A stretch of 64,000 nt of DNA, taken from assembly GCA_964613215.1 (NCBI GenBank), contig CAZTHK010000014.1:23216-87215 (forward strand). Direction: 5' to 3'. Under the pieces are notes generated by a model. The model was not told the origin of the DNA. It searched no databases and saw nothing but the letters and a program-made list of their open reading frames with translations. Source of the stretch: an uncultured bacterium (lineage in GTDB: Bacteria > Krumholzibacteriota > Krumholzibacteriia > Krumholzibacteriales > CAZTHK01). Of this stretch, positions 8,286 through 63,784 are shown in pieces. The position numbers and the translations under genes are program-made. Numbering within the stretch: the first letter of the stretch is position 1; each line of letters begins with the position of its first letter.

Positions 8286-8367
8286 ACTGCCCTGCTCCGG
8301 GTGTCTTTATCCCGGTGATATTCTTTCAGGGGGCATCCTATTTGCATGTAAAAATATCCGGCTATTC

Positions 8368-8396
8368 TTGACATTTGTTCTGTGAATATCTAAATT
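8368..8396 (+). promoter_or_regulatory. putative sigma-70 promoter of the hrcA-grpE-dnaK-dnaJ operon
   Basis: TTGACA (8368-8373), a 17-nt spacer, then TAAATT (8391-8396). Confidence 0.5.
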
Positions 8397-8407
8397 TCAG
8401 CGAGGAT

Positions 8408-8434
8408 ATAGCAGACCTCAGCGTTGAGTGCCAA
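8408..8434 (+). promoter_or_regulatory. degenerate CIRCE-like inverted repeat (candidate HrcA operator)
   Basis: The sequence is aTAGCAgaC-N9-GAGTGCcAA, against the CIRCE consensus TTAGCACTC-N9-GAGTGCTAA (left half 6/9, right half 8/9, correct 9-nt spacer). It lies between the putative -10 element and the hrcA start. Confidence 0.35.
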
Positions 8435-8436
8435 AT

Positions 8437-9468: not shown

Positions 9469-9504
9469 AGAAAAGTTGAGCAAATTTTAAGGGAGGACAT
9501 AGTA

Positions 9505-35720: not shown

Positions 35721-36884
35721 TTGAAAAATATCCTGATTCTTGGCAGCACCGGCTCGATAGGTAGATCGGCCATAGATGTTATTCTCAAGGATCCCCGGAA
35801 CTTCCGGGTAGCCGGCCTTGCAGCGGGAGAAAACGTGGATGAAATGGAGAGGCAGTTGAAGCTGTTTCCCCGGGCTGTCTTCTCCATGAAGGATGACCGG
35901 TCGGTGGCGGCACTGGAGGAGAGGGATTACTCCCTGGGCAAGAGGGCCGCCGGGGTGGGCCAGAAAGGAATAGAGAGGCTTATTAAGGAGACTTCGCCGG
36001 ATCTGGTGGTTAACGCCCTGGTGGGCATATCCGGTCTCAGGCCGACCCTCTCCGCCCTGGAGAGTGGCTGTAAGGTTGCTCTGGCCAATAAGGAAGCTCT
36101 GGTAACAGGGGGGGAGCTTATTTCATCACTGGGTGATGCGGTGAGGGAGAATATCATTCCGGTGGATAGTGAGCATTTCTCCATATCCAGATGTATCAGA
36201 GGGTATCGCGGTGAGGTGGAGGAGATTATACTGACTGCATCAGGGGGGCCGTTTTTCGGGAGGGAGCTGTCATCTCTGAAGGATGTCACTGTGGATGAGG
36301 TGCTGGATCATCCCACCTGGAATATGGGAAAGAAGGTTACCATCGACTCCGCCCTTATGCTTAACAAGGGGTTGGAGGTGATAGAAGCACACTACCTTTT
36401 TGATTTTCCCCTGGACCGGATAAAGGTGGTTATTCATCCCCAGTCCAGGGTTCATTCATTCATCCGCCTTTCCGATGGTTCCCTGCTGGCCCATCTCAGT
36501 CCTCCCGATATGAGGCTGCCTTTAATGAGTGCTCTTTATTACCCTGAAATTAATCCATTCCATTGGAATGATCTCTCCCTGGATCATCTCTACAACCTGG
36601 AATTCCATCCCTTCGATAAGGAGAGGTTTCCCGCCTTCGAGCTGGCTATCAGAGCCATCCGCCTGGGTGGTACCGCTCCCACCGTGCTGAATGCGGCGGA
36701 TGAGTTGGCGGTGGAGGCCTTCCTGGGAGGAAGGATAGGATTCCTGGACATTATCTCCTGGATCGGCGAAGCCCTTTCCGCACACCGGACCGGAGAGATA
36801 AATAGAATCGAAGATATTCTGGAAGCAGACCGGTGGACCAGGGAGTTCATATCCCGCAGTCACAGCGAGTCTGTATTGAATTAG
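35721..36884 (+). CDS. dxr: 1-deoxy-D-xylulose 5-phosphate reductoisomerase
   Basis: ILILGSTGSIG..., LANKEALV, PVDSEHFSI, HPTWNMGKKVTIDSALMLNKGLEVIEAH. TTG start. Confidence 0.96.
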   Translation: MKNILILGSTGSIGRSAIDVILKDPRNFRVAGLAAGENVDEMERQLKLFPRAVFSMKDDRSVAALEERDYSLGKRAAGVGQKGIERLIKETSPDLVVNALVGISGLRPTLSALESGCKVALANKEALVTGGELISSLGDAVRENIIPVDSEHFSISRCIRGYRGEVEEIILTASGGPFFGRELSSLKDVTVDEVLDHPTWNMGKKVTIDSALMLNKGLEVIEAHYLFDFPLDRIKVVIHPQSRVHSFIRLSDGSLLAHLSPPDMRLPLMSALYYPEINPFHWNDLSLDHLYNLEFHPFDKERFPAFELAIRAIRLGGTAPTVLNAADELAVEAFLGGRIGFLDIISWIGEALSAHRTGEINRIEDILEADRWTREFISRSHSESVLN

Positions 36885-36894
36885 CGGAGGAATT

Positions 36895-38229
36895 ATGCTG
36901 TCCACAATAATAGCCTTTCTTGTGGTTATAGCCATCGTGGTTTTCGTGCATGAGATGGGACATTTTCTGGTGGCCAAGTTAAACCGGGTTTATGTGATAA
37001 CATTCTCCTTCGGCTTCGGCCCGAAACTTATAAGGCAGAAGATCGGCGAAACGGAGTACGCAGTATCCATACTTCCGCTGGGAGGTTACGTTAAATTCGC
37101 CGGGGAGTCTGAGGATGAGGATGAGGAGGATTCCATTGAACAACAGATCCCGGAGAAGCGGCTGTACCGGGGCAAGAGCCCCCTGCAGAAGATGTCCGTA
37201 GTGGTAGCCGGGCCTGTGATGAATGCTATGTTGGCCCTGGTTTTTCTTGTGGGACTGGTTATGATGCAGGGGCTGCAGGTAAATCCGGAGACTGTAGTAA
37301 AGAAAATGGAGCGGGGAGGTCCGGCCGACAGAGCCGGTATCAGGCCCGGGGACAGGCTGATTTCCATAAATGGAGAGAAGGTGGACTACTGGGAGGAGAT
37401 TTACCAGCTCACTCATTTTGACCGGGAAGAGGATAATATATTTGTTCTGGCCAGAGACGGAGATACCTTGAGGGCAAATTTCCGTCCCCTGTTCAATCGG
37501 GAGAGTAAACAGTGGGAGTTGGGAATGAGCTCCTCGCCAAAACCACGGATAGGTAAGGTTAAAAAGGGAAGTCCTGCTGATAAAGCGGGTATAAAGGCGG
37601 GGGCGGTAATACTCTCCGTAAATGATACCACCATATCCACCTTCCGGGAGCTCACTGAATTCATTCATCCCCATCCGGAGGATTCTCTGAAGATAACCTG
37701 GGAGTATAAGGGGGAGATATATTCCGATATAATCATTCCGGAATCCCAGCAGGGAGCTGAGCAGGGAGAGGAGATCAAAGTGGTGCAGGTGGGCCAGATA
37801 GGGGTAAGGTCATATTCGGAGAAGGTGCCGGTTTCCTTCACCCGGGCAATCCGTTATGCCGCCGGGTATCTTAAGGCTCTGACGGTGATGATAATAGATT
37901 TTCTGTATAAGCTGATAACCGGAAAGGCCCCCTTCGAGGCTCTGGGAGGACCGGTCAAAATAGGTGCCATGGCGGGAGACATGCTTCGCTGGGGACTGGA
38001 CCGGCTGGTTTACTTTATCGCTTTCTTCTCTCTCAATCTGGCTATATTCAATCTGATTCCGCTTCTGCCATTTGACGGGGGACACTTCGTTCTTCACCTT
38101 TTCGAGTTTGTTACCGGCAGGGAGATAAATGAAAGGATCAAGGGAATATTCATGCAGATTGGGATAGTTATCTTTGTAATATTAATGGCCTTTATTATTG
38201 CAATGGATATCTTCAATCTGTTCAGGTGA
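36895..38229 (+). CDS. rseP: RIP (site-2) zinc metalloprotease RseP
   Basis: It has HEMGH in the first TM segment, two PDZ-like segments (GIRPGDRLISING, GIKAGAVILSVND) and a C-terminal NLIPLLPFDGGH. Confidence 0.93.
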   Translation: MLSTIIAFLVVIAIVVFVHEMGHFLVAKLNRVYVITFSFGFGPKLIRQKIGETEYAVSILPLGGYVKFAGESEDEDEEDSIEQQIPEKRLYRGKSPLQKMSVVVAGPVMNAMLALVFLVGLVMMQGLQVNPETVVKKMERGGPADRAGIRPGDRLISINGEKVDYWEEIYQLTHFDREEDNIFVLARDGDTLRANFRPLFNRESKQWELGMSSSPKPRIGKVKKGSPADKAGIKAGAVILSVNDTTISTFRELTEFIHPHPEDSLKITWEYKGEIYSDIIIPESQQGAEQGEEIKVVQVGQIGVRSYSEKVPVSFTRAIRYAAGYLKALTVMIIDFLYKLITGKAPFEALGGPVKIGAMAGDMLRWGLDRLVYFIAFFSLNLAIFNLIPLLPFDGGHFVLHLFEFVTGREINERIKGIFMQIGIVIFVILMAFIIAMDIFNLFR

Positions 38230-38231
38230 GA

Positions 38232-38606
38232 TCACCTTTGATTCTGAGCCTCCCGCCTTCGAATCAGGGTATTTATTCTGTTATATACAGCCAGCCAGCG
38301 CTGGGGATTCTGTTTCAGTTTATCCAGTGTTCTGACCACCCTTACACTGTCGGTCCGGTTTTTGAGCTGAAACAACTTTTTTTCAAGTTTTTCCTGATTA
38401 TCTTGAAGATCGCCTTCAATTTTGGTTATTTTCATGTAGGTAGTTACAAGATAACGTTCATCCGGTGTGAGAGTCTGATTCTTCTTCTGGGAAACACTAT
38501 CTTCCGGAACGCATGAGGAAAGAATAACCAGCAGTACAACCGTGACTACTGGTAAGTGCTTAAAAGGCAGTGATGATAGAGGGGTATTCATATCAGTTCG
38601 CCGCAT
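38232..38606 (-). CDS. small hypothetical lipoprotein
   Basis: It has a signal peptide with the lipobox LSSC (VVLLVILSSCVPE), followed by a charged helical region. It is convergent with rseP. The start may be the internal ATG at 38591. Confidence 0.5.
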   Translation of the reverse strand: MRRTDMNTPLSSLPFKHLPVVTVVLLVILSSCVPEDSVSQKKNQTLTPDERYLVTTYMKITKIEGDLQDNQEKLEKKLFQLKNRTDSVRVVRTLDKLKQNPQRWLAVYNRINTLIRRREAQNQR

Positions 38607-40637: not shown

Positions 40638-43600
40638 ATGGTTAAGCGAATTCTGGAATCCAAAGTAATGCCCTGGCTTTCCCTGTTGACAGGTTTGATA
40701 GTAACCATCTTCATCATGGCTGTGATCCTGATACATACTGACTTCTTCGCTGCCAATACCGGCCGCCTTCTTTCCAGATTCATGTTCGGCGGAACAGACT
40801 TCTCCCTCTCCATAGATGAAATGGGTGGAAATAGCGTCAGTAACATAGAACTCAGGGGAGTGGTTATCAGGTACCGGGGGGAGGAATTCTCATTTGATCT
40901 GCTCCGGGTAGACAGGATAAGGATGGAATATAACCTGGTTTCGGTTTTTCAGGATAACCCATCCATTCATGAACTGATATTGGATAATCCAAGGGTTTGG
41001 CTGAAACCCGATTCAACCGGCAATCAAATTCTACCCTGGGGGGAGGGGGATAACGGAACCGGTGGTTTTCCCCGTTTTACCGTAGGAAGGTTGGAGATAG
41101 ATAAGGGGCAGGTAATTGTCCAGGGACGGGAGAAGGCTGAAGTGGTGAAGGAGATTTCCATGATCTGCGCGGTCAATTCCACTTCCAGTGAGGTATCCCT
41201 GGATGTGGTGGAGAGCAGTGCCACCAGTGTAAGAGGGGAGATGAGTCTTGAAAAGCTGACTGGCAGAATAAATGTGATAAGAAAAGATAGCTGGGAAAAG
41301 CCGGAGGGAAGACAACCGGGATACCAGATACTGCTGAGCGGATTGAGGGTTGAACTGGAGGATTCCAGATTGAGCCTGGACGGCAGGATAAATCCGGATC
41401 CCCTGGATTTGGGGATTAGTGTTAATGCCAGCCCGGCCAATATAGCTGAACTGGCCGACGTAGTGGGTATTGAAACATCTCACCGTGGCGAGATAGAGGG
41501 CAAATTCCTTCTCCGGGGGAGGCCGGACAGCCTTCAGATAGAAGGAAACTGCCATGGTGTTTTTTCCGGCTACGCCATGGAGAATCTCACTACCCGGTTG
41601 TATATAGATGAATCGGGGATAAGGGTTATGAACGTAGACGGCCAGGTGAACGGAATATCCATCAGTGGTTCGGCATTCTATTCTCTTAATGAACCGGAAA
41701 CATTCTATACCCGGCTGGGTGTTAATGAAATGGATCTGTCCCGGGGTGTGGTTCAGGGTGTTGATCTGCCCCCCACCAATTTTAACGGAGAATTGAAACT
41801 CACTTATCTTCCCGGCAGTGAGGATCTTACCTTCAACTTTGAGCTGGGGGAAGGCCATCTGGATGGTCTCCCCTTTAATAATGGTTTTTTCAGCGCTGAA
41901 TATTCGGGGGGGGTGCTTTCCATAGAAAGACTGATGCTGTCGGATCAGTCTCACTGGATGGATTCCCACGGGAAAATATGGGGAAAGGACAGTCTCAGAG
42001 TATTCTTCGAGGTAAAATGCGAGAAGGATGATACACTCTTCTCCTACTTTGATATCCAGGATTACAGAGCTGATGTGAATCTGAACTGTGTCTGGCAGGG
42101 AAACCTTGACAGCTGGAAGCTGCGTGCCAGCGGTTCCTGTCAGAGACTCGACTACAGCCATGCCTGCGTGGACAGTGGAGGAATCAAGCTGGTGATCGAC
42201 AAGAAGGACAGTTATGGTGTGCTTTTCGATCTGGAGGCGGACAGCTGCGAAGTGGGTTCATACGGTTTCGGGGGGATGAATTTATCACTGGACTATCTTA
42301 ACGGTGTAACCCAGATTAAAAAACTCTATCTGGAGAAGAAAGACCTGAATCTGGATATTATTGCCAGGGTGGTAAACAGGAATGATTCTACCATAGTCGA
42401 TATGGAGGAATTGTCCATGAATGCCCTGGGTGAGAAATGGTTGGGGGGCGGGGAATTCAGTGTGGTTTCCACTGATTCGCTGGTACAGTTCAGAGATCTT
42501 CAGTTGCATTCCAGGAAGGGAGCGGTATATCTGGATGGCAGATTCGACCGGGGGGACAGCCTTCTGGATGGTGAATTGGAGGTGGAGCGTCTGGATATGG
42601 CCCTGCTTAACAGGGCTGAGGTGGCACCGGATACACTGGGGGGTCAGGGAAGGGGTGTTTTCAAATTCAGCGGTCCGCTGGATAGTCCGGATATCTCTGC
42701 CCATTTTGGAATTACCGGAGGATGGTATGATACTCTGCAGGTTGATTCCCTGGAGGTAGCGGGGGAGTGGCGGGATAAAAAATTACTGCTGGATAGCCTG
42801 ATTATCACAACCCCCCGGGGTTATGTCAGAGGAGGGGGGGAGATAGTTGGAGTGGACACCGGTGAGTTGTACCGCAGGGGTGCGGAGGCACTTGAGCAAT
42901 CGATTTCCCGGCTGTCATTCCACTGTGAGGGGATGGAGATTTCCCCTATACTGGGGTTGATGGAACAATCCCGGCCTTCGCAGGGGTACTTCTCCGGCAA
43001 TATTATCCTTTCCGATTCGACCTTCCATCCCCGGCTCAGATTGGATGGCACCATCAGCGAAATGTATATATCCTCGGTGTATATTCCCGCCGTGGAGGTT
43101 AATATCACCGCAGACCGGAATGCTTTGGACCTGGAAGGGACAGTACATATATCACAGAACAGCACCGGTAGTCTTAAGGGCTACATTCCCCTGAAGAAAA
43201 AGAATTTCTTCTATAAGGTCGATAGGGACAGGGACTTCTCCCTGCAGCTGGAAATAGCACAGTCGGATTTCGGCAATGCTCCAGAATTAACCCGTTTTAT
43301 TGCAGAGTCATCGGGAGGGTTTTCCATGAACCTTGGTATTGCCGGCAGGTGGGAACAACCCAGTATCAACGGCGAATTTATTCTGGATGATGCCGCCCTC
43401 AGGCTCTCCGGAATGGGAGAGTATTTTCACCAGGTTAATTCCAGAATCACCCTGGATGACAGCGTTGTCAGTATAGAAAAGATGGAGGGGAAGGAAGGAA
43501 AAGAGGGTGAGTTCGAATGCCGGGGAAATATATTCCTCCGCGGCTGGAAACCGGAGAAATACCAGCTCAGAGCCAGTCTGGACAATATTCTGATAACCAG

Positions 43601-44552
43601 CGTGCCGGATATAATGGCTGGAGTCAGCGGTGATCTCACTGTGGGCATGGATACCCTGGCGGGAGGGAAAATAGTACCACTGATAGGAGGCCAGCTGGAA
43701 GTGAAAAGAGGTGAAATATACTATGATCTAAATGATTTTTCGTCGGAGCAGGGAAGCGCCACCATGGCGCCGCCCTCCTGGGTCGCCAGTGTGGATCTGG
43801 ATATTCCGGGTAATGTGTGGCTTAAAACGCCTGATGCGAAGATAGAACTTCAGGGAGAGGTCACCCTGAACCACGATCAGAGGGGAGACTATCTCAGGGG
43901 GAGGCTCCGCCTGTTGAGAGGATGGTATAATGTCTATAACAACAAGTTTCATATTAAGTCGGGGGAACTTGACTTTGTTCATGCCAGGGGATTCCGCCCG
44001 GTGGTGGATATTCAGGCCGAGACCAGGGATCCCCAGGGCAAGAAGATATACCTGAATCTGGTGTGGAATCAGGATGATGTGGAGCCCAGGCTGTCTCTGA
44101 GCCATGAAGACCCGGGATACAGCGAGACCGATATCTGGAAGATGCTGGGGGGGGGAGTGGTAGCTTCGTCCGAAGAGGGAAGTACCAGCTGGGATGCGGT
44201 AAGTACAGCTCAGAACCTGGCCGCAAATTATATAGAAAGGGTGTTGAATTCCCAGATGGAGGGTGTGACCATCGAGGTGGAATCGGCCGGTGGGAAGGCG
44301 GTAGGGGGAAGTTTCGAAGAGGAAGAAACCATGATTGCTGTTGGAAAGTACCTATCCGAAGGATTGTATGTGAAGTACAAGCAGGGGCTGTCCATCTCTT
44401 CAGCCAAACAGATAGAGGTGGAATACAGAATAAGTGATCTCTTTCTGATACGCTCCCAGATAATAAGGTATTCGGAGAAAGCGCTGAAGAGTGAGAGCCA
44501 GCGGGCCGGTGACGAGGTAAATGTGGATATTAAATTAAGATGGGAATTCTAG
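40638..44552 (+). CDS. tamB: translocation and assembly module protein TamB (AsmA-like, DUF490 C-terminus)
   Basis: 1304 aa, with a single N-terminal TM anchor, a long beta-rich repetitive body and a C-terminal GKYLSEGLYVKYKQGLS...VEYRISDLFLIRSQ typical of TamB. Confidence 0.85.
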   Translation: MVKRILESKVMPWLSLLTGLIVTIFIMAVILIHTDFFAANTGRLLSRFMFGGTDFSLSIDEMGGNSVSNIELRGVVIRYRGEEFSFDLLRVDRIRMEYNLVSVFQDNPSIHELILDNPRVWLKPDSTGNQILPWGEGDNGTGGFPRFTVGRLEIDKGQVIVQGREKAEVVKEISMICAVNSTSSEVSLDVVESSATSVRGEMSLEKLTGRINVIRKDSWEKPEGRQPGYQILLSGLRVELEDSRLSLDGRINPDPLDLGISVNASPANIAELADVVGIETSHRGEIEGKFLLRGRPDSLQIEGNCHGVFSGYAMENLTTRLYIDESGIRVMNVDGQVNGISISGSAFYSLNEPETFYTRLGVNEMDLSRGVVQGVDLPPTNFNGELKLTYLPGSEDLTFNFELGEGHLDGLPFNNGFFSAEYSGGVLSIERLMLSDQSHWMDSHGKIWGKDSLRVFFEVKCEKDDTLFSYFDIQDYRADVNLNCVWQGNLDSWKLRASGSCQRLDYSHACVDSGGIKLVIDKKDSYGVLFDLEADSCEVGSYGFGGMNLSLDYLNGVTQIKKLYLEKKDLNLDIIARVVNRNDSTIVDMEELSMNALGEKWLGGGEFSVVSTDSLVQFRDLQLHSRKGAVYLDGRFDRGDSLLDGELEVERLDMALLNRAEVAPDTLGGQGRGVFKFSGPLDSPDISAHFGITGGWYDTLQVDSLEVAGEWRDKKLLLDSLIITTPRGYVRGGGEIVGVDTGELYRRGAEALEQSISRLSFHCEGMEISPILGLMEQSRPSQGYFSGNIILSDSTFHPRLRLDGTISEMYISSVYIPAVEVNITADRNALDLEGTVHISQNSTGSLKGYIPLKKKNFFYKVDRDRDFSLQLEIAQSDFGNAPELTRFIAESSGGFSMNLGIAGRWEQPSINGEFILDDAALRLSGMGEYFHQVNSRITLDDSVVSIEKMEGKEGKEGEFECRGNIFLRGWKPEKYQLRASLDNILITSVPDIMAGVSGDLTVGMDTLAGGKIVPLIGGQLEVKRGEIYYDLNDFSSEQGSATMAPPSWVASVDLDIPGNVWLKTPDAKIELQGEVTLNHDQRGDYLRGRLRLLRGWYNVYNNKFHIKSGELDFVHARGFRPVVDIQAETRDPQGKKIYLNLVWNQDDVEPRLSLSHEDPGYSETDIWKMLGGGVVASSEEGSTSWDAVSTAQNLAANYIERVLNSQMEGVTIEVESAGGKAVGGSFEEEETMIAVGKYLSEGLYVKYKQGLSISSAKQIEVEYRISDLFLIRSQIIRYSEKALKSESQRAGDEVNVDIKLRWEF

Positions 44553-44620: not shown

Positions 44621-47600
44621 ATGTTGAGAAGAAGAATCAAAGATGCCCTCATTATATATGCGGCTGTGGCAGTGATGCTTGCAGTGGTCCATTCTCCCGC
44701 CAATTCCCAGGGTGTGTATTTCGGGAAGAACAAGGTTCAGTACAAGGACTTCCAGTGGAAAATACTCAAAACACCCCACTTTGACATTCACTTCAATGAA
44801 GGTTACCGGAAGCTGGCCGCCCGTACAGCTGTGGTCCTGGAGCACGGTTATAAAAAGCTCTCCCTGGATTTCAACCATGGTATCCCATGGAGGATACCGG
44901 TAATACTGTATGGGAGCCATTCCGATTTCCAGCAAACCAACGTCACCTGGAGTCTTATTCCGGAGGGCGTACAGGCCTTCGCTGAGCCCACTCACAAACG
45001 GATAGTGCTTCATTACAGCGGCTCGAATAACTCCTTTACTCATACAGCAATACATGAGCTGACCCATATATTCGAATTCGATATCATCTACGGAAGCCTG
45101 CTTAAATCGGTCTTCTCCAGAACCATGCTGTTCGGGGTGCCCCTCTGGTTCATGGAGGGGATCTCCGAGTACTACTCCATCGGCTACGATAGAGAGGCAG
45201 AGATGTTCATGCGGGATGCCACCGTATTCGGCTATCTTCCCTACAGCCTCGACTATGCCAGGGGCTATATGGTCTATAAAGCGGGGCAGAGTGTTTTAGA
45301 ATATATCAACAGGATATACGGCCCCGAAAAGGTCATAGAGATCATGGATAATACCGGCTATATGAGATCTCTGGAGCGGGCCCTTAAGACATCCATAGGA
45401 ATATCTACCGAGGAGCTCACCCGCAAGTGGAAGAAGGATCTCAGAAGAAGATACTGGGGGCTTTATGCCGACAGGAAGGAACCGGAGGCCTACGGGAGGA
45501 GGCTGACCGATCATATCAAGGGTCATCATTACATGAACACCAAACCTGTTTTCTCTCCAGACGGAGAGGCTATAGTATTCTATTCCGACAGGAAGGGGCT
45601 GGACGGAATCTATCTTATCAATGCAATAACCGGTGAGATAGAGAAACATCTCATTACCGGCTCCATGTCAGTGGAATTCGAATCCATCCGCAGTATGAAA
45701 TCATCACTTACCTTCAGCCCGGATGGTTCCATGATCACTTTCGTGGCTAAATCGGATGGAAGGGACCGGCTGTTTATCCTGGATGTAGAGGATGGCGATA
45801 CCCGGAGAAAGATAGATTTGCCCCTGGATTTCTTCTACAGCCCGGCCTGGTCCCCCGGGGGGAACAGAATAGCGATGGTAGGGTGTGTGAAAGGACAGAC
45901 GGACCTGTTCATATATAATATGGAAAACGGGAGGGTTAAGCAGATAACCGATAATGTGGATAACGAGAGTGATCCGGCATGGTTTCCGGATGGTTCGGAG
46001 ATATTGTACAGCCGTTCACCCATGACCATGAAGGAGCCGGTTTTCAGAACGGACAGTGCCGGTGTGGAAAGGCTGGCTGGTATAGATTTTCAGTCGCTGG
46101 ACAATGTCAGGTATACGGAGGGAGATATCTGGAGTGTGAATGCGGTTACCGGGGAACAAAGGGAGTGTATAGCCACCAGCGGTAACGACAGCAGCCCCCT
46201 GGTCATATCCGGAGGAAAGGAGATAATTTTTACCTCCGATGAGAGTGGTATTACCAACCTTTACCGGGGAAGCCTGGAGATGGGAAGTTATTACCGGTTT
46301 ACCGATGTACTGGGAGGTCTGTTTGAGCCGGACTACGCTGAAGAGGATGACAGACTGGTTTTCTCCGCTTTTAACACCGCCGGGTACGATCTGTTTATCA
46401 TGGATAACTTCAGCCGGAAGGTTCAGAGATCATATTCCACCGGTGGTCCTGTAGTGGCTGCTACTGCAGAGGAGGAAAGCAATCTGGAGGAGGTAGAAAA
46501 ACCAGGCCGGTCGGATACTACCATCTCCCGGCCGGTCGGGTCCGAAGATGTGGCGGCAGCTGTTGACACCACTGGTTTGACTGGAAATGAAGAGGTTGAG
46601 GTTCCCCCGGAGGAGGATGAAGTAACCGGTTCAATCTCCGGGGAGGTGGAGCTGGCAGAGAAGAGGGCAACTCAAATATCCCGGCCCGGCAATGATTATC
46701 CGGCTCCGGATGATTATTCGCCGGTATCGGTGGATGTTGATGCCGAGGATGTTCATCCGGATAGCCTGAAAGCAGCGAAAAAGAGGATGAAGAAGAGAGT
46801 GGGAACAGTGGAGCCATACCAGATCGAGTTTTCCCCCGATTATATTGGGAACGGAATGGGGCTGTTCTTCTCCACAGGTTTCGGGTTCGGCCTTATGAAC
46901 CAGATAGCTTTCAGCGATCTGCTGGGCGATCATCACATGTTTCTGTCTTTCAATATTTACAGATCACTGGAGGATAGTGATTTTCTGTTTTCCTACTACT
47001 ATCTCAAGAACAGGATAGACTATGCAGTGGGGGTATTCCAGTTCAACAATTATCTTAACTCCAGGGGGACCTCTATAGGGGAGACCTTCACCGATTACAG
47101 GTATTTCACCGAACGGAATTATGGCCTGTTCGGTATGGTTAGCTTCCCCTTTTCCACCTTCGACAGGGTAGACCTGGAGTTTCAAGGCTTTATTTCAGAG
47201 AGGCGCTTCTTCGATTATGTCCAGTATGACGAATACGGTTACACTATCATTCCCGGAGAGGAATCCAAACGGAGGCTTTTTCAGCCCACTATCTCCTTCG
47301 TTCATGATTCGGCTTACTTCGGGTCCTTCGGCCCGGTAATTGGTTCCAGATGGATGGCCAGTGTTTCCAGGTCCATTTCCTTCTCCGGCAGTGATGTTTC
47401 CAGAACCACCGCCTATCTGGACTACCGTAAGTATCTTCCCCTGTTCTACAGAAATTATCTGGCCTTCAGGGCTATCGGTGCCATCAGCGAGGGGGACGAC
47501 CAGAGATACTTTTATCTGGGCGGACCCATGACCATGAGGGGATATGACTATCTACAGTTCTCCGGGCCCAGAATGATGCTGTTCAACCTGGAGTACCGCT

Positions 47601-47905
47601 TTCCCATGATAGATCAACTGGTTTTCGGCTGGCCCGGAAGGTGGGGTATAAGTAATATCGGTGGAACACTTTTTCTGGACAGCGGGGCGGTGTGGGGGGA
47701 GGGCACCTTCAAAGAAAGATTACCGGCCGGTATCGAATCCAGGACCATAGGGGGGTTGGATGAATATGAATTCTACAGTGATTTTGGTCTGGGTTTCTAT
47801 CTCAGATTTGGTTATTTGATATTGAATTTCCAGCTGGGCTGGCCCACCGATTTCTCCAGGACCGGGGAGCCGGTATTCCACTTTTACATTGGTCCTCAAT
47901 TCTAA
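44621..47905 (+). CDS. chimeric outer-membrane protein: HExxH zincin (Peptidase_MA-like) domain + PD40/TolB-like beta-propeller + acidic linker + Omp85-type beta-barrel
   Basis: It has a signal peptide, HELTH (45053-45067) with a downstream WFMEGISEYY, and repeated FSPDG/WSPGG/WFPDG propeller motifs. The C-terminal barrel has LGGPMTMRGYDY, NLEYRFPM, GGTLFLDSGAVW and a terminal ...IGPQF, which parallels the upstream Omp85. Confidence 0.8.
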   Translation: MLRRRIKDALIIYAAVAVMLAVVHSPANSQGVYFGKNKVQYKDFQWKILKTPHFDIHFNEGYRKLAARTAVVLEHGYKKLSLDFNHGIPWRIPVILYGSHSDFQQTNVTWSLIPEGVQAFAEPTHKRIVLHYSGSNNSFTHTAIHELTHIFEFDIIYGSLLKSVFSRTMLFGVPLWFMEGISEYYSIGYDREAEMFMRDATVFGYLPYSLDYARGYMVYKAGQSVLEYINRIYGPEKVIEIMDNTGYMRSLERALKTSIGISTEELTRKWKKDLRRRYWGLYADRKEPEAYGRRLTDHIKGHHYMNTKPVFSPDGEAIVFYSDRKGLDGIYLINAITGEIEKHLITGSMSVEFESIRSMKSSLTFSPDGSMITFVAKSDGRDRLFILDVEDGDTRRKIDLPLDFFYSPAWSPGGNRIAMVGCVKGQTDLFIYNMENGRVKQITDNVDNESDPAWFPDGSEILYSRSPMTMKEPVFRTDSAGVERLAGIDFQSLDNVRYTEGDIWSVNAVTGEQRECIATSGNDSSPLVISGGKEIIFTSDESGITNLYRGSLEMGSYYRFTDVLGGLFEPDYAEEDDRLVFSAFNTAGYDLFIMDNFSRKVQRSYSTGGPVVAATAEEESNLEEVEKPGRSDTTISRPVGSEDVAAAVDTTGLTGNEEVEVPPEEDEVTGSISGEVELAEKRATQISRPGNDYPAPDDYSPVSVDVDAEDVHPDSLKAAKKRMKKRVGTVEPYQIEFSPDYIGNGMGLFFSTGFGFGLMNQIAFSDLLGDHHMFLSFNIYRSLEDSDFLFSYYYLKNRIDYAVGVFQFNNYLNSRGTSIGETFTDYRYFTERNYGLFGMVSFPFSTFDRVDLEFQGFISERRFFDYVQYDEYGYTIIPGEESKRRLFQPTISFVHDSAYFGSFGPVIGSRWMASVSRSISFSGSDVSRTTAYLDYRKYLPLFYRNYLAFRAIGAISEGDDQRYFYLGGPMTMRGYDYLQFSGPRMMLFNLEYRFPMIDQLVFGWPGRWGISNIGGTLFLDSGAVWGEGTFKERLPAGIESRTIGGLDEYEFYSDFGLGFYLRFGYLILNFQLGWPTDFSRTGEPVFHFYIGPQF

Positions 47906-47942: not shown

Positions 47943-50090
47943 ATGAGTAAACTTAATCCGCAACAGAAAAAGGCCGTAGAAACCACAGAGGGGCCGGTTC
48001 TGGTACTGGCTGGAGCAGGCAGCGGAAAGACCAGAGTGCTCACCGAGAGGGTGGCTCACCTGATAAGGGACCTGGGAGTTTCCCCGGCCCGTATTCTGGC
48101 TTTTACCTTTACCAATAAAGCGGCCGGAGAGATGAGAGCCAGGGTACACAGGCTTCTGGGTACCCGGGATTTACCATTCTGGGTGGGTACCTTTCATGCC
48201 ACCGGGGTAAGGATACTAAGAAAAGAGGCGGATTATCTTAACTTCGGGAGGGATTTCGCCATCTATGACCAGGATGATTCCACCGCCCTGATAAAGGAGA
48301 TAGTAAAGAGTAAAAACTGGAGTCTGGATGAATGTTCCCCCCGGGTGTTCAGGGATAGAATATCCAGATGGAAGAACTCGCTGGTTACACCGGAGGAGGC
48401 GGCTGATAAGGCGGCCGACCGCCAGGATGAACTTCAGGCTGTGATTTACCGCAGCTATACGGCTGCCCTGGAGCGCTGCAATGCTCTGGATTTCGATGAT
48501 CTGATCACCAGGGTGGTAGAGCTGTTTACCGCCCATCCCAGGGTCAAGGAGAGATATGCCAGGCAGTTCCGCTATGTTCACGTGGATGAGTTTCAGGATA
48601 CCAATAAGATTCAGATGCTGATGATTGATCTTCTCTCCTCCCGCCACCGGAATCTTTTCGTGGTGGGTGACGATGATCAGGCCATATACGGATGGAGGGG
48701 TGCCACGGTGGAAAATATACTTCAGTTCGACCGGATATACAGTGATGTGCTTACCATCAGGCTGGAGGAGAATTACCGTTCCACCAATACCATACTGAGA
48801 GCTGCCAACAGTCTTATCTCCTGTAACCAGGGCAGGAAGGGAAAAAGTCTGTGGTCTGCAGGTGAAGAGGGGGAGCCTATAGAAATATATCAGGTGATGG
48901 ATGAAGAAGATGAGGGAAGGGTGGTCAGGGAGAAGATAATGGAACTTATCAGAAGGGGCTGGAGCAGAAATGATATTGCGGTGCTGTACCGTACCAATGC
49001 CCAGTCCAGGGCTCTGGAGAAGGCTATGAGGGAAGGGGGGCTGGCCTATCAGATAGTGGGTGGTACCAGGTTTTATGAACGGATGGAGATCAGGGATCTG
49101 CTGGGATATCTCAAAGTTATAAACAATCCCCGGGATGAGGTGAATTTCCGGAGAATCGTTAAAGTCCCCAGGAGGGGCATAGGGGCTGCCACCCTTGAAA
49201 AAATCGGGAAGGCATCCGGTGGAGAGAGCACGCTTCCGGCAATAAAGAAGAAGGAGGTACTGGCTGCCATTCCTTCCGCCCGGCGGAAGAGGGTGAAGAA
49301 GTTCTCCAGCATGATGAGCAGGCTGGAGCTGGAGTCCCGGACCGAAACGGTGGATCAGCTGCTTCGTTCGGTTATAGAAGAAACCGGTTATCGGCAATAT
49401 CTGGAGGGTGACCCCTCTACCGCCCAGAACCGTAAGGAGAACGTGGATGAACTCCTGGTGGAGACCAGGCGGTTCGTGGAGTCATCGGAAGATAAGAGCC
49501 TGGCCGCCTTCCTGGAAGAGATTGCCCTGATCAGCGATATAGATACCATGAAAGAGGACCAGTCGGTCTCGCTGATGACCCTGCATAATTCAAAGGGGCT
49601 TGAATTCAGGGGGGTCTTTATTACCGGAATGGAAGAGGGGCTGTTGCCCCATTATTCCAGTTTCGAGTCCACCGCTGAGCTGGAGGAGGAGAGGAGACTA
49701 TTCTATGTGGGGATGACCAGAACCAGGGAAAAGCTTTATCTCTTATGCTCGGATAACCGGATGAGATACGGAAGCTGGGAGGGAAGCCGGCCATCCCGTT
49801 TTCTGGATGAGATACGGGATCATTGCCTGGTACAGAAGGAGACCGGGGATATACCATCTCTGGGAATGGACGCTCTCAGCTCCATGGGACAGGAGATTGC
49901 GCAGGACAGGAGGGTGAGCTCCCGGAACAGCCGCTACCGGGTGGGAGCCCGGATCGATCATCCCGCCTTCGGGAGGGGGAGGATAAGCAAACTGGAAGGA
50001 GGTGGTGATGACCTGATGGTAACGGTCAAATTCGACGGCAGACCCCCCAAGAAATTCCTGGCCAGGTATGCTCCCTTCCGGTTTGTATGA
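47943..50090 (+). CDS. uvrD: ATP-dependent DNA helicase, UvrD/PcrA family
   Basis: It has LNPQQKKAV, Walker A AGAGSGKT, DEFQDTN, VGDDDQAIYGWRGA, helicase motifs V/VI (TLHNSKGLEF, YVGMTRTRE) and a C-terminal Tudor-like HPAFGRG. Confidence 0.95.
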   Translation: MSKLNPQQKKAVETTEGPVLVLAGAGSGKTRVLTERVAHLIRDLGVSPARILAFTFTNKAAGEMRARVHRLLGTRDLPFWVGTFHATGVRILRKEADYLNFGRDFAIYDQDDSTALIKEIVKSKNWSLDECSPRVFRDRISRWKNSLVTPEEAADKAADRQDELQAVIYRSYTAALERCNALDFDDLITRVVELFTAHPRVKERYARQFRYVHVDEFQDTNKIQMLMIDLLSSRHRNLFVVGDDDQAIYGWRGATVENILQFDRIYSDVLTIRLEENYRSTNTILRAANSLISCNQGRKGKSLWSAGEEGEPIEIYQVMDEEDEGRVVREKIMELIRRGWSRNDIAVLYRTNAQSRALEKAMREGGLAYQIVGGTRFYERMEIRDLLGYLKVINNPRDEVNFRRIVKVPRRGIGAATLEKIGKASGGESTLPAIKKKEVLAAIPSARRKRVKKFSSMMSRLELESRTETVDQLLRSVIEETGYRQYLEGDPSTAQNRKENVDELLVETRRFVESSEDKSLAAFLEEIALISDIDTMKEDQSVSLMTLHNSKGLEFRGVFITGMEEGLLPHYSSFESTAELEEERRLFYVGMTRTREKLYLLCSDNRMRYGSWEGSRPSRFLDEIRDHCLVQKETGDIPSLGMDALSSMGQEIAQDRRVSSRNSRYRVGARIDHPAFGRGRISKLEGGGDDLMVTVKFDGRPPKKFLARYAPFRFV

Positions 50091-50182: not shown

Positions 50183-50479
50183 ATATTCTATTACCTGATG
50201 GTTTAGCATGATCCATCCGCCGGCGATGCTGAAAGCCGCAGGCGGCCGCACATTTGTCTCATCTCTACCTCATTTTCGAATGTGCTACTTGCTCCCGAAT
50301 TGCTGTAGTTGAAAGTGGTCTGAATCTTCTACCTTCCTGGTGACAGTCCGTTGAGAGTGCAGGTAAGATCCAGGGAAAAATCAAACCTGGAGACGGGGGT
50401 GGCATGATCGAAAAGGTATGCCTTCTCCTGTCGCGCCAGGATTTTTCCCTCCCCTGATTCCGCCCTCTCCGGAATGAGG

Positions 50480-50507
50480 TTGACACGGTTGAGCCATTGT
50501 ATATAGT
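50480..50507 (+). promoter_or_regulatory. putative sigma-70 promoter of gatCAB
   Basis: TTGACA (50480-50485), a 16-nt spacer, then TATAGT (50502-50507), about 70 nt upstream of gatC. Confidence 0.4.
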
Positions 50508-50574
50508 ATCCCTTCTACGGAAGAAATAATGGAGGTATGGCTTATGCCTGCACCGAATCCGGAGGAATAAAACC

Positions 50575-50868
50575 ATGAAACTCAGCGATGAAGAATTGAA
50601 GAATATCGAAAAGCTGGCCAGTGTAAAGCTGGAGGGAGAAGCCCGGGAGAGGCTTAAAAGCCAGCTGTCCGGAATCATAGATTTTGTTAAAAAACTTGAG
50701 AAGATCGATACCTCCGGATATTCACCCAGGGCATATGTGGGAGACTTCCAACCGGTGCTGAGGGAGGATGAGGTTAAGGAATCCCTGGACCGTGGCGGGG
50801 TGCTGGAGCAGGCCCCGGACAGCGAGAAGGGCATGTTCAGGGTACCTCCGGTAATCGACAGGGAGTAA
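50575..50868 (+). CDS. gatC: Asp-tRNA(Asn)/Glu-tRNA(Gln) amidotransferase subunit C
   Basis: 97 aa, with ...IEKLASVKLEGEA...QLSGIIDFVKKL...D. It is followed by gatA and gatB. Confidence 0.93.
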   Translation: MKLSDEELKNIEKLASVKLEGEARERLKSQLSGIIDFVKKLEKIDTSGYSPRAYVGDFQPVLREDEVKESLDRGGVLEQAPDSEKGMFRVPPVIDRE

Positions 50869-50910
50869 CCCTCTGTATTTTCCAGCGAAAAACCGGCCGG
50901 AAAAATAATC

Positions 50911-52374
50911 ATGAATAATAAAAGCAATTATACTGTTTCAGCCTTATTGAAGAAGTACCGGAGTGGCGAGTTAAGTCCCCGGGAAATAATTGAAGACTGT
51001 TTCCGCCGGATTGATAGGCAGGATGAGGGTATTAACGCCTTTCTTCGCCTGTCCCGGAAGAAAGCCCTGGAGAGGGCGGTAAGGCTGGAGGATTTGGACC
51101 CGGGTCTTCCCCTTTACGGAATACCGGTGGCGGTTAAGGATAACATCTGTACCAGGGGGGAGGTTACCTCCTGCGGTTCCAGGATACTGGAAGGCTACAG
51201 TCCTCCCTACAGTGCCACTGTGGTGAAACGGCTGGAGGAGGCGGGAGCTGTGGTAGTGGGAAAGACCAATATGGATGAATTCGCCATGGGTTCATCCTGT
51301 GAAAACTCCGCCTTCGGCCCAACTGCCAATCCGCATGACACCACCCGTGCTCCGGGAGGTTCCAGCGGCGGTTCTGCGGCGGCGGTGGCGGCGGAAATGG
51401 TCCCGGTGGCTCTGGGTTCCGATACCGGCGGTTCGATAAGACAACCGGCCTCCTTCTGTGGTGTGGTTGGTTTCAAGGGCACCTATGGCAGGGTTTCCCG
51501 TTACGGACTGGTAGCTTTTGCCAGCAGCCTGGACCAGATAGGCCCCATAACCGGGAATGTGGCCGACTGTGCCGCAGTGATGGAGGTGATAGGGGGACAT
51601 GATCCCGGCGATGCCACCACCATACCGGAGGAGTGCCCGATCCTTGGGGAAGAACTGGACAGGGGATGGGAGGGGGTAAGTGTGGGTGTTCCCTCTTCAA
51701 TGGGTGAGTGGGATATAGATGAGACGGTCAGAGAGGTCACCGAAAACACAATCAGCCGTATGAAAGAGAGTGGGGTTGAGGTCAGAGAGATAAAACTGCC
51801 CGATCTGGAGGCTACCATAGGCTGCTACTACATTCTTGCCACAGCGGAGGCCTCCTCCAATCTGGCCCGTTACGACGGGGTGAGATACGGTCTGCGGGTG
51901 GAGGGAAGAACCCTGGAGGAGATGTACCGGCAGACCAGGGGAGAGGGATTCGGCGAAGAGGTAAAGAGAAGAATTCTTCTGGGAACCTATGTGCTTTCGG
52001 CAGGTTATTACGAGGCTTACTATGCCAGGGCTCAGAAGGTCAAGGCGCTGTTATGCGACAGTTACATGCAGCTTTTCCGGGAGGTGGACCTGGTTCTGCT
52101 GCCCACCTCGCCCACCCCGGCTTTCCGGCTGGGTGAAAAGCTGGATGACCCGGTGGCCATGTATCTCTCCGATATCTTTACCACCACCGCCAATATTGCC
52201 GGGTTGCCGGCCATATCGATACCGGGCGGTCATTCGCCGGATGGACTGCCGGTGGGGCTTCAGCTGCTGGCGGGATGGGGAGGGGAGAAGATGGTGATAA
52301 GGGGAGCGGCTGCACTGGAGAGAATGTTTCAAACCGGTGAATCTCCGGGTGATAATGGGGGTAAGTATGAATAA
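50911..52374 (+). CDS. gatA: Asp-tRNA(Asn)/Glu-tRNA(Gln) amidotransferase subunit A
   Basis: It has the amidase signature GGSSGGSAAAVAA...GSDTGGSIRQPASFCG. Confidence 0.97.
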   Translation: MNNKSNYTVSALLKKYRSGELSPREIIEDCFRRIDRQDEGINAFLRLSRKKALERAVRLEDLDPGLPLYGIPVAVKDNICTRGEVTSCGSRILEGYSPPYSATVVKRLEEAGAVVVGKTNMDEFAMGSSCENSAFGPTANPHDTTRAPGGSSGGSAAAVAAEMVPVALGSDTGGSIRQPASFCGVVGFKGTYGRVSRYGLVAFASSLDQIGPITGNVADCAAVMEVIGGHDPGDATTIPEECPILGEELDRGWEGVSVGVPSSMGEWDIDETVREVTENTISRMKESGVEVREIKLPDLEATIGCYYILATAEASSNLARYDGVRYGLRVEGRTLEEMYRQTRGEGFGEEVKRRILLGTYVLSAGYYEAYYARAQKVKALLCDSYMQLFREVDLVLLPTSPTPAFRLGEKLDDPVAMYLSDIFTTTANIAGLPAISIPGGHSPDGLPVGLQLLAGWGGEKMVIRGAAALERMFQTGESPGDNGGKYE

Positions 52375-59534: not shown

Positions 59535-60182
59535 ATGATGATGAGGAATGTTTGCCAGATCAGTATGACTGTTGTTTTTCTTCCCGTTTTAATTCTTTCT
59601 ATTTCAACTGCTTCTCAGTCACAGGTTATGATCAACGAGTTCATGCCGGATCCCGCCACCGACTGGGATGGAGACGGTGAAGTAAATTACCGTGATGACG
59701 AATGGGTTGAGATAAAGAACAGGGGAGACAGTGCGGTGGATCTATCCGGCTATCTTCTCGCCGATGGTATTGAAGAGCCCCAGTGGCGATACGGATTGGC
59801 GGGACAACTGATGCCCGGAGAGGTGCTGGTGGTTTTCGGAAGTGATTCCAGGGCCTGGGAGGAGTCCAATCAGTTTCCCAGGTATGGATTGAGCCTGAAT
59901 AACAGTGGTGACCGGATTTCAGTGTTCCGGGTAGAGAACGGGGATACTGTATGCATCCATTACTATACCTACCAGGATGAGGTGGTTGGCGATGACAGAT
60001 CGGTGGGAATCAGTGCCGATCCACAGGAGGGTTGGGTAGTCTTCGATGCCTACAGTCCCTGTGATGGCGCCTGTGGAATCCCCGGCAGCGGATGTATACC
60101 CACTCCCGGCTCCCCCAACCAGTGTACCACCGGAGTGGAATCGGAAAGCTGGGGGAGCATTAAACAGAAGTTCAGCCGTTGA
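59535..60182 (+). CDS. secreted lamin-tail-domain (LTD) protein with the C-terminal ESESWGSIKQKFSR tail
   Basis: It has a signal peptide, then INEFMPDP...DEWVEIKNRGDSAVDLSGYLLAD, which is the LTD signature. A Cys-rich segment follows. The C-terminal 16 aa are GVESESWGSIKQKFSR (60132-60179). Confidence 0.8.
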   Translation: MMMRNVCQISMTVVFLPVLILSISTASQSQVMINEFMPDPATDWDGDGEVNYRDDEWVEIKNRGDSAVDLSGYLLADGIEEPQWRYGLAGQLMPGEVLVVFGSDSRAWEESNQFPRYGLSLNNSGDRISVFRVENGDTVCIHYYTYQDEVVGDDRSVGISADPQEGWVVFDAYSPCDGACGIPGSGCIPTPGSPNQCTTGVESESWGSIKQKFSR

Positions 60183-62770: not shown

Positions 62771-63784
62771 ATGAGCAGCCAGACAGGTTTGAAATGCACG
62801 GCGGATATACAGCGTAGAGGTAGCATATTGGAAATAAAGGATCTTATAACCGGTTTCCAGGAGGGTAAGGTAGCTGCGGCAGCCCGGCTTATATCCGTAA
62901 TCGAGGATGGCGGCGAAGAAGCGGAGAAGGCCATGGATGCTATCTTTCACCGGGTCAACGGAGTCCCCCGGCTGGGTTTTACCGGTCCCCCGGGAGCAGG
63001 CAAGAGCACCCTGGTTTATAACCTTACCGGACTGTACCGGGCCAGGGATAAGAAGATTGGTATTATTGCAGTAGATCCCACCAGTCCGTTCAGCGGGGGA
63101 GCACTTCTGGGCGACCGGATCAGGATGCAGAAACTTTCGGGGGACAGCGGGGTTTTTGTCAGGAGCCTGGCCAGCCGGGGCAGTCTGGGGGGTATTTCAA
63201 ACTGCACCGACGATGTTGCCGATCTGATGGATGCATTCGGAAAGGATATGGTGTTAATAGAAACGGTGGGAGTGGGGCAGTCCGAACTGGAGGTGGCAGA
63301 TAAGGCTCATACCGTGGTGGTGGTTCTGGTTCCGGAATCGGGAGATGGAATTCAGGCCATGAAGGCCGGACTTATGGAAATCGGTGATATCTTCGTGATG
63401 AACAAATCGGACCACCCCGACGCAGAGATGGCAGCCAGGGAGCTGGAAGAGGTGCTGAGGATGAAAGAGGTAGGGGAGGGGGGGTGGAGGCCGCCGGTGG
63501 TATTGACTTCGGCATTGGAGAAAAAGGGAACCGGGCAGCTTATCCACGGAATAGATAAACATCAGAAGCATCTCAAGGAAAAGGGCGGATTCGAGACAAA
63601 GAGGAGGAGCATCCTTTGCTCCCGGGTAAAGAGCGCTTTCATGGATAAGGTGGAGAAGAAATTTCTGGATGATCCCCAGGTGGAAGAGATAATGAACCGG
63701 CAGATGGAGGAGGTCTACCGTGGAGATCTATCCCCCTACCGGGTGGTCAGGGAACTGGAGGGGATGCTGGGAATCAGGGGATAA
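62771..63784 (+). CDS. meaB: methylmalonyl-CoA mutase-associated GTPase MeaB (ArgK family)
   Basis: It has the P-loop GPPGAGKSTL, plus VDPTSPFSGGALLGDRIRM, FVRSLASRGSLGG, ETVGVGQSE and MNKSD. Confidence 0.93.
   Translation: MSSQTGLKCTADIQRRGSILEIKDLITGFQEGKVAAAARLISVIEDGGEEAEKAMDAIFHRVNGVPRLGFTGPPGAGKSTLVYNLTGLYRARDKKIGIIAVDPTSPFSGGALLGDRIRMQKLSGDSGVFVRSLASRGSLGGISNCTDDVADLMDAFGKDMVLIETVGVGQSELEVADKAHTVVVVLVPESGDGIQAMKAGLMEIGDIFVMNKSDHPDAEMAARELEEVLRMKEVGEGGWRPPVVLTSALEKKGTGQLIHGIDKHQKHLKEKGGFETKRRSILCSRVKSAFMDKVEKKFLDDPQVEEIMNRQMEEVYRGDLSPYRVVRELEGMLGIRG

Follow-up and report, generated by a model that had tools for sequence, protein, structure and literature searches.

In 2014, Heinz and Lithgow (Front Microbiol 5:370, PMC4104836) divided bacterial Omp85/TpsB proteins into ten subfamilies, one of which, termed "WD40-like," combines PF07676 (PD40) repeats with PF01103, lacks POTRA domains, and has a propeller nearest to that of TolB. 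Their main text treats only the propeller (as a "BamA-BamB fusion"); the peptidase appears solely in supplementary Table S3, where every member is paired with a barrel template (BamA/TamA), a propeller template (TolB), and a "best aminopeptidase hit" (1z5h, 4kxd, 4fgm, 4ar1, or 3qnf), the aminopeptidase templates at ~99% Phyre2 confidence (PMC4104836). The 2014 set comprised ~60 UniProt entries from other taxa (PMC4104836), and a 2024 paper (PMC11358297) credits the same subfamily with "divergent WD40 and peptidase domains." We present here a protein of this type, encoded in a 64,000-nucleotide stretch (the window) of contig CAZTHK010000014.1 from an uncultured bacterium of the Krumholzibacteriota. 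By sequence and structural modeling, it combines an Omp85 barrel lacking POTRA domains with a zincin domain and a TolB-like propeller in the same chain.

This architecture is not new, having been catalogued in 2014; to the "WD40-like" subfamily, the protein adds a divergent member of the Krumholzibacteriota type. Membership was set by domain architecture and shared templates, and the 2014 members were compared by description. Relative to that subfamily, the protein differs in a barrel too divergent for a PF01103 match. An earlier annotation made from the letters of the window (the first-pass annotation) had called the protein uncharacterised. This stands as far as function is concerned, since no functional study of the subfamily was found in the literature on Omp85/PD40, Peptidase_MA_2, non-POTRA Omp85, or the Krumholzibacteriota outer membrane, and a 2026 review on BAM, the beta-barrel assembly machinery, does not discuss it; the novelty that the term implied does not stand. 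A search from a KSB1 member for the cultured organisms of the 2014 list returned only proteins from metagenome-assembled genomes (MAGs).

Domain composition and conservation

Homologs were aligned in two sets, A1 (65 close homologs) and A2 (87 divergent homologs, down to ~26% identity). A full-length AlphaFold2 (AF2) model was built from the 65-sequence alignment (mean predicted local distance difference test [pLDDT] score, 81.3; predicted template modeling [pTM] score, 0.79), and the AF2 models were read through pLDDT, pTM, the DSSP strand list, and Foldseek matches. The open reading frame (ORF), predicted signal peptide, HELTH and WFMEGISEYY motifs, PD40 repeats, and barrel motifs all lie where the first-pass annotation had placed them, and its overall description of a POTRA-less Omp85 with a zincin and a propeller is borne out by Pfam, the profiles, and the model. 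Coordinates are collected in Table 1. Read from the sequence, the N terminus consists of MLRRRIKD, the hydrophobic segment ALIIYAAVAVMLAVV, and then SPANS/QG, with no lipobox cysteine; the AF2 model has a helix at residues 2 to 22 with a low-pLDDT stretch after it. In the close set, mean conservation is 0.70 for the zincin domain, 0.62 for the propeller, and 0.69 for the barrel, reaching 0.79 in loop 6 (L6) with strands 12 and 13. The linker is the sole unconserved part: its equivalents in the family are 22 to 203 amino acids (aa) long, with conservation of 0.10 to 0.22. Its acidic character, claimed earlier, is evident from its composition (23 D/E versus 6 K/R in the 91 residues of aa 608 to 698).

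The N-terminal domain matches Peptidase_MA_2 (PF13485) with 36.5 bits (gathering cutoff, 32.4). Modeled alone with AF2, aa 30 to 295 gave a pLDDT of 87.2 and a pTM of 0.85, and Foldseek matched this model to the peptidase domains of M9 clostridial collagenases (7zoc, 4arf, and 4ar1) and to the M1 aminopeptidases F3 factor (1z1w and 3q7j), IRAP, ERAP1 (3qnf), and 4fgm, all with E values of 8e-5 to 4e-3 and TMq of 0.5 to 0.6. Three Table S3 entries are thus recovered (4ar1, 3qnf, and 4fgm), and F3 factor is found as 1z1w/3q7j versus the 1z5h of that table. On the model, the domain is a gluzincin (clan MA). H145, E146, H149, E179, and E183 are intact in 65/65 sequences of A1 and 85/87 of A2 (150/152 overall); W176, E179, G180, E183, and Y184 are invariant in A1. 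By analogy with the "NEG" motif of M1 enzymes, the third zinc ligand is probably E179 or E183. With 29 residues lying between H149 and E179, the spacing is, we presume, closer to that of M9 than to that of M1. Because HExxH and the downstream glutamate are kept across homologs, conservation of the active site argues for a live peptidase.

The propeller matches PD40 (PF07676) with 64.3 bits (cutoff, 20.9) and contains four PD40-type repeats (aa 311 to 324, 365 to 378, 410 to 421, and 454 to 465). TolB sequences from the Protein Data Bank (PDB) matched the protein at an E value of 4e-22, the family profile matched TolB at 5e-30, and Foldseek aligned TolB with the propeller at 3e-12. DSSP assigned ~25 propeller strands, which in our reading form six blades of four strands each, like those of TolB. 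The Tricorn_N, Tricorn_2nd, and DPPIV_N models also match this region. TolB matches are confined to it, apart from partial Foldseek overlaps with a high root mean square deviation, and the N-terminal domain of TolB was recovered by none of the sequence, profile, or fold searches. As the TolB model TIGR02800 reaches only 139.9 bits, under its cutoff of 343, and the TolB N-terminal domain is without a match, the idea that the protein is TolB itself was rejected. The same two results speak against a noncatalytic scaffold, in which a degenerate zincin would act as a binding module of a structural protein, for example, a TolB-Pal-like envelope tether. Such a scaffold would suit the marginal Peptidase_MA_2 score and a propeller nearest to a nonenzymatic protein, but an HExxH motif retained with its catalytic glutamate and the downstream glutamate in 150/152 homologs, to ~26% identity, is unexpected for a dead enzyme, and we consider this reading very improbable.

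The C terminus was assigned at the level of the family profile and the structure, because the sequence itself has neither a PF01103 match (none at E values of ≤0.1) nor a match among PDB sequences (phmmer with the barrel alone found nothing even at E values of ≤10). The NCBIfam model Omp85_fam scores weakly (22.8 bits; cutoff, 200). At these levels, the assignment as an Omp85 barrel holds. BLASTP of aa 721 to 1094 against the BamA encoded upstream in the window (a TIGR03303 match) gave an E value of 5e-6 over 224 residues (25% identity) covering strands 8 to 15 with the motifs in register, and hhalign of the family profile with the same BamA gave a probability of 94% (E value, 1e-7), in agreement with the earlier claim that the barrel motifs of the two proteins align. 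In 48 divergent full-length relatives (25 to 42% identical; a subset of the 87 in A2) scanned with Pfam, PF01103 was matched by 37 (best E value, 4.7e-23), PD40 by 47, and Peptidase_MA_2 by 43. The A2 profile matched solved barrels over their whole length (9ccg_A, 2e-20; BamA 9pxj_A, 1.4e-14; Escherichia coli BamA, ~8e-11), and Foldseek matched the model to BamA in BAM complexes (8qn4_A and 5d0o_A; E value, 2e-8). The first-pass annotation had foreseen 16 strands in an AlphaFold prediction, and the model has 16 long strands over aa 738 to 1092, with barrel pLDDT mostly between 75 and 95. Its proposed Pfam order of PF13485, PF07676, and PF01103 without PF07244 is recovered for the first two families and for the absence of the last; PF01103 is missing from the protein itself. 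It had also been prepared to give up its claim if the C terminus did not score as Omp85. Taken literally, the protein's own scores go part of the way there, but the family profiles, the PF01103 matches of the relatives, and the model overturn that result.

Several motifs support the barrel assignment. The lid-lock signature, defined from BamA and FhaC, consists of (V/I)RG(F/Y) in L6 and (F/G)xDxG in strand 13. Here, RG(Y/F) is present in 65/65 sequences of A1, in LGGPMTMRGYDY, and falls, like L6 of BamA, in the loop from strand 11 to strand 12; in FxDxG, within GGTLFLDSGAVW, the F, D, and G are invariant in A1 and kept in ≥90% of A2, and the motif falls within the strand at residues 1008 to 1025 (strand 13). 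NLEYRFPM occupies aa 989 to 996, and the terminal F is residue 1094. With its lid and lock kept and its conservation on a par with that of the catalytic domain, the barrel probably serves for more than anchoring. POTRA (PF07244) has no match in the protein, nor is it among the families matched at E values of ≤0.001 by the 48 relatives, and the model has a single helix only between linker and barrel. The TIGR03303, TamA, and TamL models have no match in the protein.

Table 1. Features of the WD40-like Omp85 gene and of its neighborhood, in window positions
Feature	Position	Strand	Basis or remark
Complete ORF, WD40-like (peptidase-propeller) Omp85 protein	44621..47905	+	1,094 aa plus stop, one uninterrupted frame
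Predicted Sec signal peptide, aa 1-30	44621..44710	+	Read from sequence
Predicted gluzincin metallopeptidase domain, aa ~35-290	44723..45490	+	Pfam Peptidase_MA_2, domain model, Foldseek
HELTH, predicted HExxH zinc-binding/catalytic motif, aa 145-149 (H145, E146, H149)	45053..45067	+	Homolog alignments
WFMEGISEYY helix with probable third zinc ligand (E179 or E183), aa 176-185	45146..45175	+	Conservation
TolB-like PD40 beta-propeller, aa ~300-600	45518..46420	+	PD40 and TolB matches, Foldseek, strand list
Disordered acidic linker, aa 608-698	46442..46714	+	pLDDT < 50, composition
Short basic helix just before barrel strand 1, aa 713-726	46757..46798	+	DSSP of model; poorly conserved
Omp85-type 16-strand beta-barrel, aa 729-1094, F at end	46805..47902	+	Model, Foldseek, family profile
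L6 "lid" motif, aa 966-977 (R973-G974-Y975), loop of strands 11/12	47516..47551	+	Alignment and model
Strand-13 "lock" motif FLDSG (F1018-x-D1020-x-G1022), aa 1014-1025	47660..47695	+	Alignment and model
rpsB, tsf, pyrH, frr, uppS, cdsA	Upstream of dxr		
dxr	35721-36884		
rseP	36895-38229		
bamA, 648 aa	38676..40622	+	TIGR03303, 348 bits (cutoff, 297); PF01103, 185 bits; POTRA, 113 bits, 3 matches
tamB-like gene	40638..44552	+	PF04357, 130 bits; 68-nucleotide gap to the WD40-like Omp85 gene
pcrA/uvrD	47943-50090		
gatC, 97 aa	50575-50868	+	tblastn E values to 6e-27 in relatives; gatC position before gatA
gatA, gatB	Downstream of gatC		
LTD-domain gene	59535-60182		
meaB	62771-63784		

Extent of the family and kinship with described systems

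More than 100 full-length homologs of ~1,040 to 1,150 aa, with the same order of parts, were found in NCBI, JGI, ENA, and Logan assemblies, and at 16 related loci tblastn gave a single segment spanning aa 1 to 1094. The earlier worry that two ORFs had been joined by an assembly error is laid to rest by these independent homologs, and an assembly chimera was rejected. A periplasmic peptidase-propeller gene and a noNterm Omp85 gene fused by misassembly or by a frameshift in the linker would find room in a low-complexity, unalignable linker, but the frame is uninterrupted and the full-length homologs and the 16 related loci contradict it, leaving practically no chance of an artefact. One related locus is itself broken: L008, from MAG MFD04716.bin.2.305, has rseP, bamA, tamB, and pcrA each in several tblastn pieces, owing to frameshifts that probably stem from long-read indel errors. 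Another contig of the same MAG (L013) carries a second, partial copy of the segment from the WD40-like Omp85 gene through pcrA to gatA.

A family search returned more than 3,700 proteins. With the barrel alone as the query, 1,281 clusters at 50% identity were matched at E values of ≤1e-3; the full-length proteins are mostly 900 to 1,170 aa long, and the match lies at the C terminus. By source name, the best matches (56 to 68% identity) are Krumholzibacteriota, in line with the lineage of the window, and other names include Latescibacterota, Chitinivibrionia, KSB1, Zixiibacteriota, Eisenbacteria, TA06, and Glassbacteria. Members are annotated automatically as "BamA/TamA family outer membrane protein," "PD40 domain-containing protein," or "peptidase MA family metallohydrolase."

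With BamA and TamA, the protein shares the 16-strand barrel, the L6 (V)RG(F/Y) lid, the strand-13 FxDxG lock, and the C-terminal aromatic residue; it differs from them in having no POTRA domains and in bearing an N-terminal enzyme and propeller. PlpD, a patatin-like Omp85 of type Vd, likewise carries an enzyme on the N-terminal side of its Omp85 barrel within a single chain, but that enzyme is a patatin lipase and is separated from the barrel by a POTRA domain, in contrast to the zincin, propeller, and disordered linker found here. Neither patatin nor POTRA families were matched in the Pfam scan of the protein, which is accordingly not of the PlpD-like type Vd. TolB offers the best sequence and fold match for aa ~300 to 600, with the same six-bladed PD40 propeller; in the present protein, the propeller forms one chain with a protease and a barrel.

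Among proteases, BepA, a BAM-associated HExxH zinc protease and chaperone acting on outer membrane proteins at the periplasmic face, is a possible functional analogue. It belongs to M48, has TPR repeats, and is a separate soluble protein, unlike the combination of Peptidase_MA_2 with PD40 described here, and the Pfam scan detected no sequence relation between the two. Propeller-gated peptidases (tricorn with its F3 partner, DPP-IV, and acylaminoacyl peptidase) also set a beta-propeller beside a peptidase, and the zincin domain matches F3 factor 1z1w; these are serine peptidases (tricorn and S9) or, in the case of F3, a separate protein, and none is anchored by an Omp85 barrel. The "Metallo" Omp85 subfamily (PF00149 plus PF01103, PMC4104836) is similarly POTRA-less with an N-terminal metalloenzyme, but it lacks a propeller, and its PF00149 domain has the calcineurin-like metallophosphoesterase fold rather than that of an HExxH zincin.

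The protein belongs to a very large and widely spread Omp85 subfamily that has been on record since 2014 and counts thousands of proteins in FCB-type phyla, and it is a natural fusion of three activities that Proteobacteria split among an Omp85 barrel, a propeller (BamB/TolB), and a zinc protease (BepA). Its topology and substrate would show how outer membrane proteostasis is laid out in phyla without most BAM accessory proteins, and the subfamily is a worthwhile experimental target because it is widespread.

Orientation of the N-terminal module and candidate roles

In the model, the eight connections that lead from an odd to an even strand are long (7, 1, 14, 17, 9, 25, 24, and 8 residues), and the seven that lead from an even to an odd strand are short (3, 2, 4, 7, 2, 5, and 2 residues). 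This pattern, together with the RGY loop between strands 11 and 12, is that of canonical Omp85 barrels, in which the chain runs into strand 1 from the periplasmic side, so that by default the N-terminal module would lie in the periplasm. Propellers of the PD40/TolB type are modules typical of the periplasm. The pTM of 0.79, obtained despite ~120 disordered residues, suggests that AF2 fixes the placement of the N-terminal module with respect to the barrel.

Our tentative preference is for a composite reading, in which the protein is a periplasm-facing, propeller-gated metallopeptidase tethered to the outer membrane and engaged in envelope protein turnover or quality control. The Sec signal peptide would deliver the protein to the periplasm, and the predicted 16-strand barrel, whose last residue is aromatic like that of BAM substrates, would insert into the outer membrane. 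With strand 1 entered from the periplasmic side, as the strand and loop pattern suggests, the N-terminal module would hang beneath the outer membrane on a flexible acidic leash. Judging from the conservation of HExxH and the downstream glutamate, this module would be an active gluzincin peptidase. It would be packed on the six-bladed propeller, which, by analogy with tricorn, DPP-IV, and acylaminoacyl peptidase, may bind or filter unfolded polypeptides and admit them to the active site. The role would then lie in housekeeping, with envelope proteins or peptides turned over or quality-controlled where the outer membrane faces inward, making the protein, beside BAM, a one-chain analogue of BepA and similar BAM-associated proteases, with a barrel whose conserved L6 lid and strand-13 lock probably do more than anchor it. 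A housekeeping character is in keeping with the location of the gene in a string of core genes and with the very wide spread of the family.

Several points weigh against this composite reading. The location of the N-terminal module is a deduction from the model, and the Peptidase_MA_2 score barely exceeds its cutoff (36.5 versus 32.4 bits). The tamB/bamA neighborhood, the sole contextual hint of biogenesis, is lineage-specific and lies inside general synteny. The layout of passenger, long disordered linker, short helix, and barrel is autotransporter-like, and PlpD (type Vd) is a precedent for the export of an enzyme fused to an Omp85 barrel.

The last two points lead to a surface-displayed or secreted protease, in which the barrel would act as a Vd-like translocator exporting its own zincin-propeller, with the linker passing through the pore, and the exported enzyme would serve nutrition by breaking down proteins or peptides outside the cell. 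The order of enzyme, linker (608 to 698), helix (713 to 726), and barrel resembles that of autotransporters, the best fold matches include secreted collagenases, and distant members lie among unrelated genes rather than biogenesis genes. Beside the PlpD precedent, export was raised as an option for enzyme-fused Omp85 proteins by Heinz and Lithgow (PMC4104836). Against this, strand 1 begins in the periplasm according to the canonical pattern of loops and turns; lid and lock are intact, and both fill the lumen in known Omp85 structures; and there is no POTRA domain, unlike in PlpD and TpsB systems. Export would require a propeller-bearing module of ~570 aa to pass in the unfolded state, linkers of only 22 aa occur in the family, and the gene belongs to a core housekeeping string in this lineage. 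We judge export unlikely, although it keeps an appreciable minority of our belief.

Gene neighborhood and linkage to tamB

The window contains the string rpsB-tsf-pyrH-frr-uppS-cdsA-dxr-rseP-bamA-tamB, followed by the WD40-like Omp85 gene, pcrA, and gatCAB (Table 1); the rseP-Omp85-tamB arrangement given in the first-pass annotation is thereby confirmed as dxr-rseP-bamA-tamB. The functional weight that the annotation attached to the tamB position is not sustained. The order dxr-rseP-bamA-tamB-WD40-like Omp85-pcrA is kept in Krumholzibacteriota-type loci (56 to 60% identity) wherever the contig extends far enough and again at 44 to 49% identity (L018, L024, L025, and L026). In the complete Latescibacterota genome CP070677.1 (L017), bamA is elsewhere and a short tamB-domain gene still precedes the homolog. 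No tamB or bamA was found nearby at six loci of ~25 to 36% identity (L012, L019 on a short contig, L020 from Eisenbacteria, L021 from KSB1, L022, and L023), and a family-wide co-occurrence with tamB was therefore rejected. Adjacency to tamB is confined to the Krumholzibacteriota/Latescibacterota lineage at ≥44% identity. Because the collinear block in these genomes runs for tens of kb, through pcrA, gatCAB, the LTD-domain gene, and meaB, the adjacency is indistinguishable from general synteny and is weak evidence of function; no role should be deduced from the linkage to tamB.

These observations bear on whether the protein is an insertase or translocase paralog, whose barrel would handle clients in the manner of BamA or TamA while the propeller and peptidase stand in for POTRA/BamB in docking or editing, perhaps as the partner of TamB in this lineage. 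A barrel conserved like the catalytic domain, with an invariant lid and lock, would fit such a role, as would the presence of tamB directly upstream in all examined lineage members of at least 44% identity, L017 included. The subfamily was likened to a BamA-BamB fusion by Heinz and Lithgow (PMC4104836). We nevertheless regard this role as rather doubtful, given that insertase function needs no invariant protease active site, that TamB docks on the POTRA domains of TamA, of which there are none here, and that bamA-tamB is already a known pairing by itself. The six distant loci have no tamB or bamA near the homolog, and the collinear block holds pcrA and gatCAB too, so that adjacency may be mere synteny.

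As a long shot, the Krumholzibacteriota/Latescibacterota protein could be the dedicated outer membrane partner of TamB, or a third subunit with BamA and TamB, forming a system like the translocation and assembly module (TAM) with an editing protease that degrades clients or lipoproteins failing assembly. Across the subfamily, the lid-lock barrel would then be an active gate that feeds stalled outer membrane proteins to its own peptidase.

Further observations concern the neighborhood itself. A scan from bamA to pcrA found 12 promoter and 12 terminator sites, with 13.5 and 11.9, respectively, expected by chance, and is uninformative on operon structure. Window positions ~31000 to 64000 are collinear with L024 to L026 from dxr through gatCAB, the LTD gene, and meaB, an unusually long-range synteny for these candidate phyla. 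In L017, the tamB-domain gene (8253 to 9878) encodes 541 aa, versus ~1,300 aa elsewhere, and has addAB upstream on the other strand; the alternatives are a tamB that has been truncated or split and a short paralog.

The BamA of the lineage is short (648 aa, with three POTRA Pfam stretches and a TIGR03303 match starting at model position 151). A 96-aa plus-strand ORF upstream of bamA was considered as its lost N terminus and rejected, as several stops lie between them and BamA has 648 aa in L007 too; for these reasons, the short bamA does not stem from a gene call cut at its start. Between rseP and bamA, and divergent from the latter, a 124-aa minus-strand ORF (38232 to 38606) has a signal peptide and a lipobox-like "VILSSC"; it matches no Pfam family. 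Its position is kept in L001, L003, and L006 to L010 (41 to 53% identity; E values down to 1e-20) and in L025 (34%), and judging from its sequence, it may encode a small envelope lipoprotein linked to bamA. A 220-aa minus-strand ORF (50265 to 50927) matches no family, overlaps gatC, and is probably spurious. At 22168 to 23286, among mutS2, dnaG, rpoD, and recJ, the window also encodes a 372-aa protein with YCF48/BNR-type propeller matches (PSII_BNR and Sortilin-Vps10).

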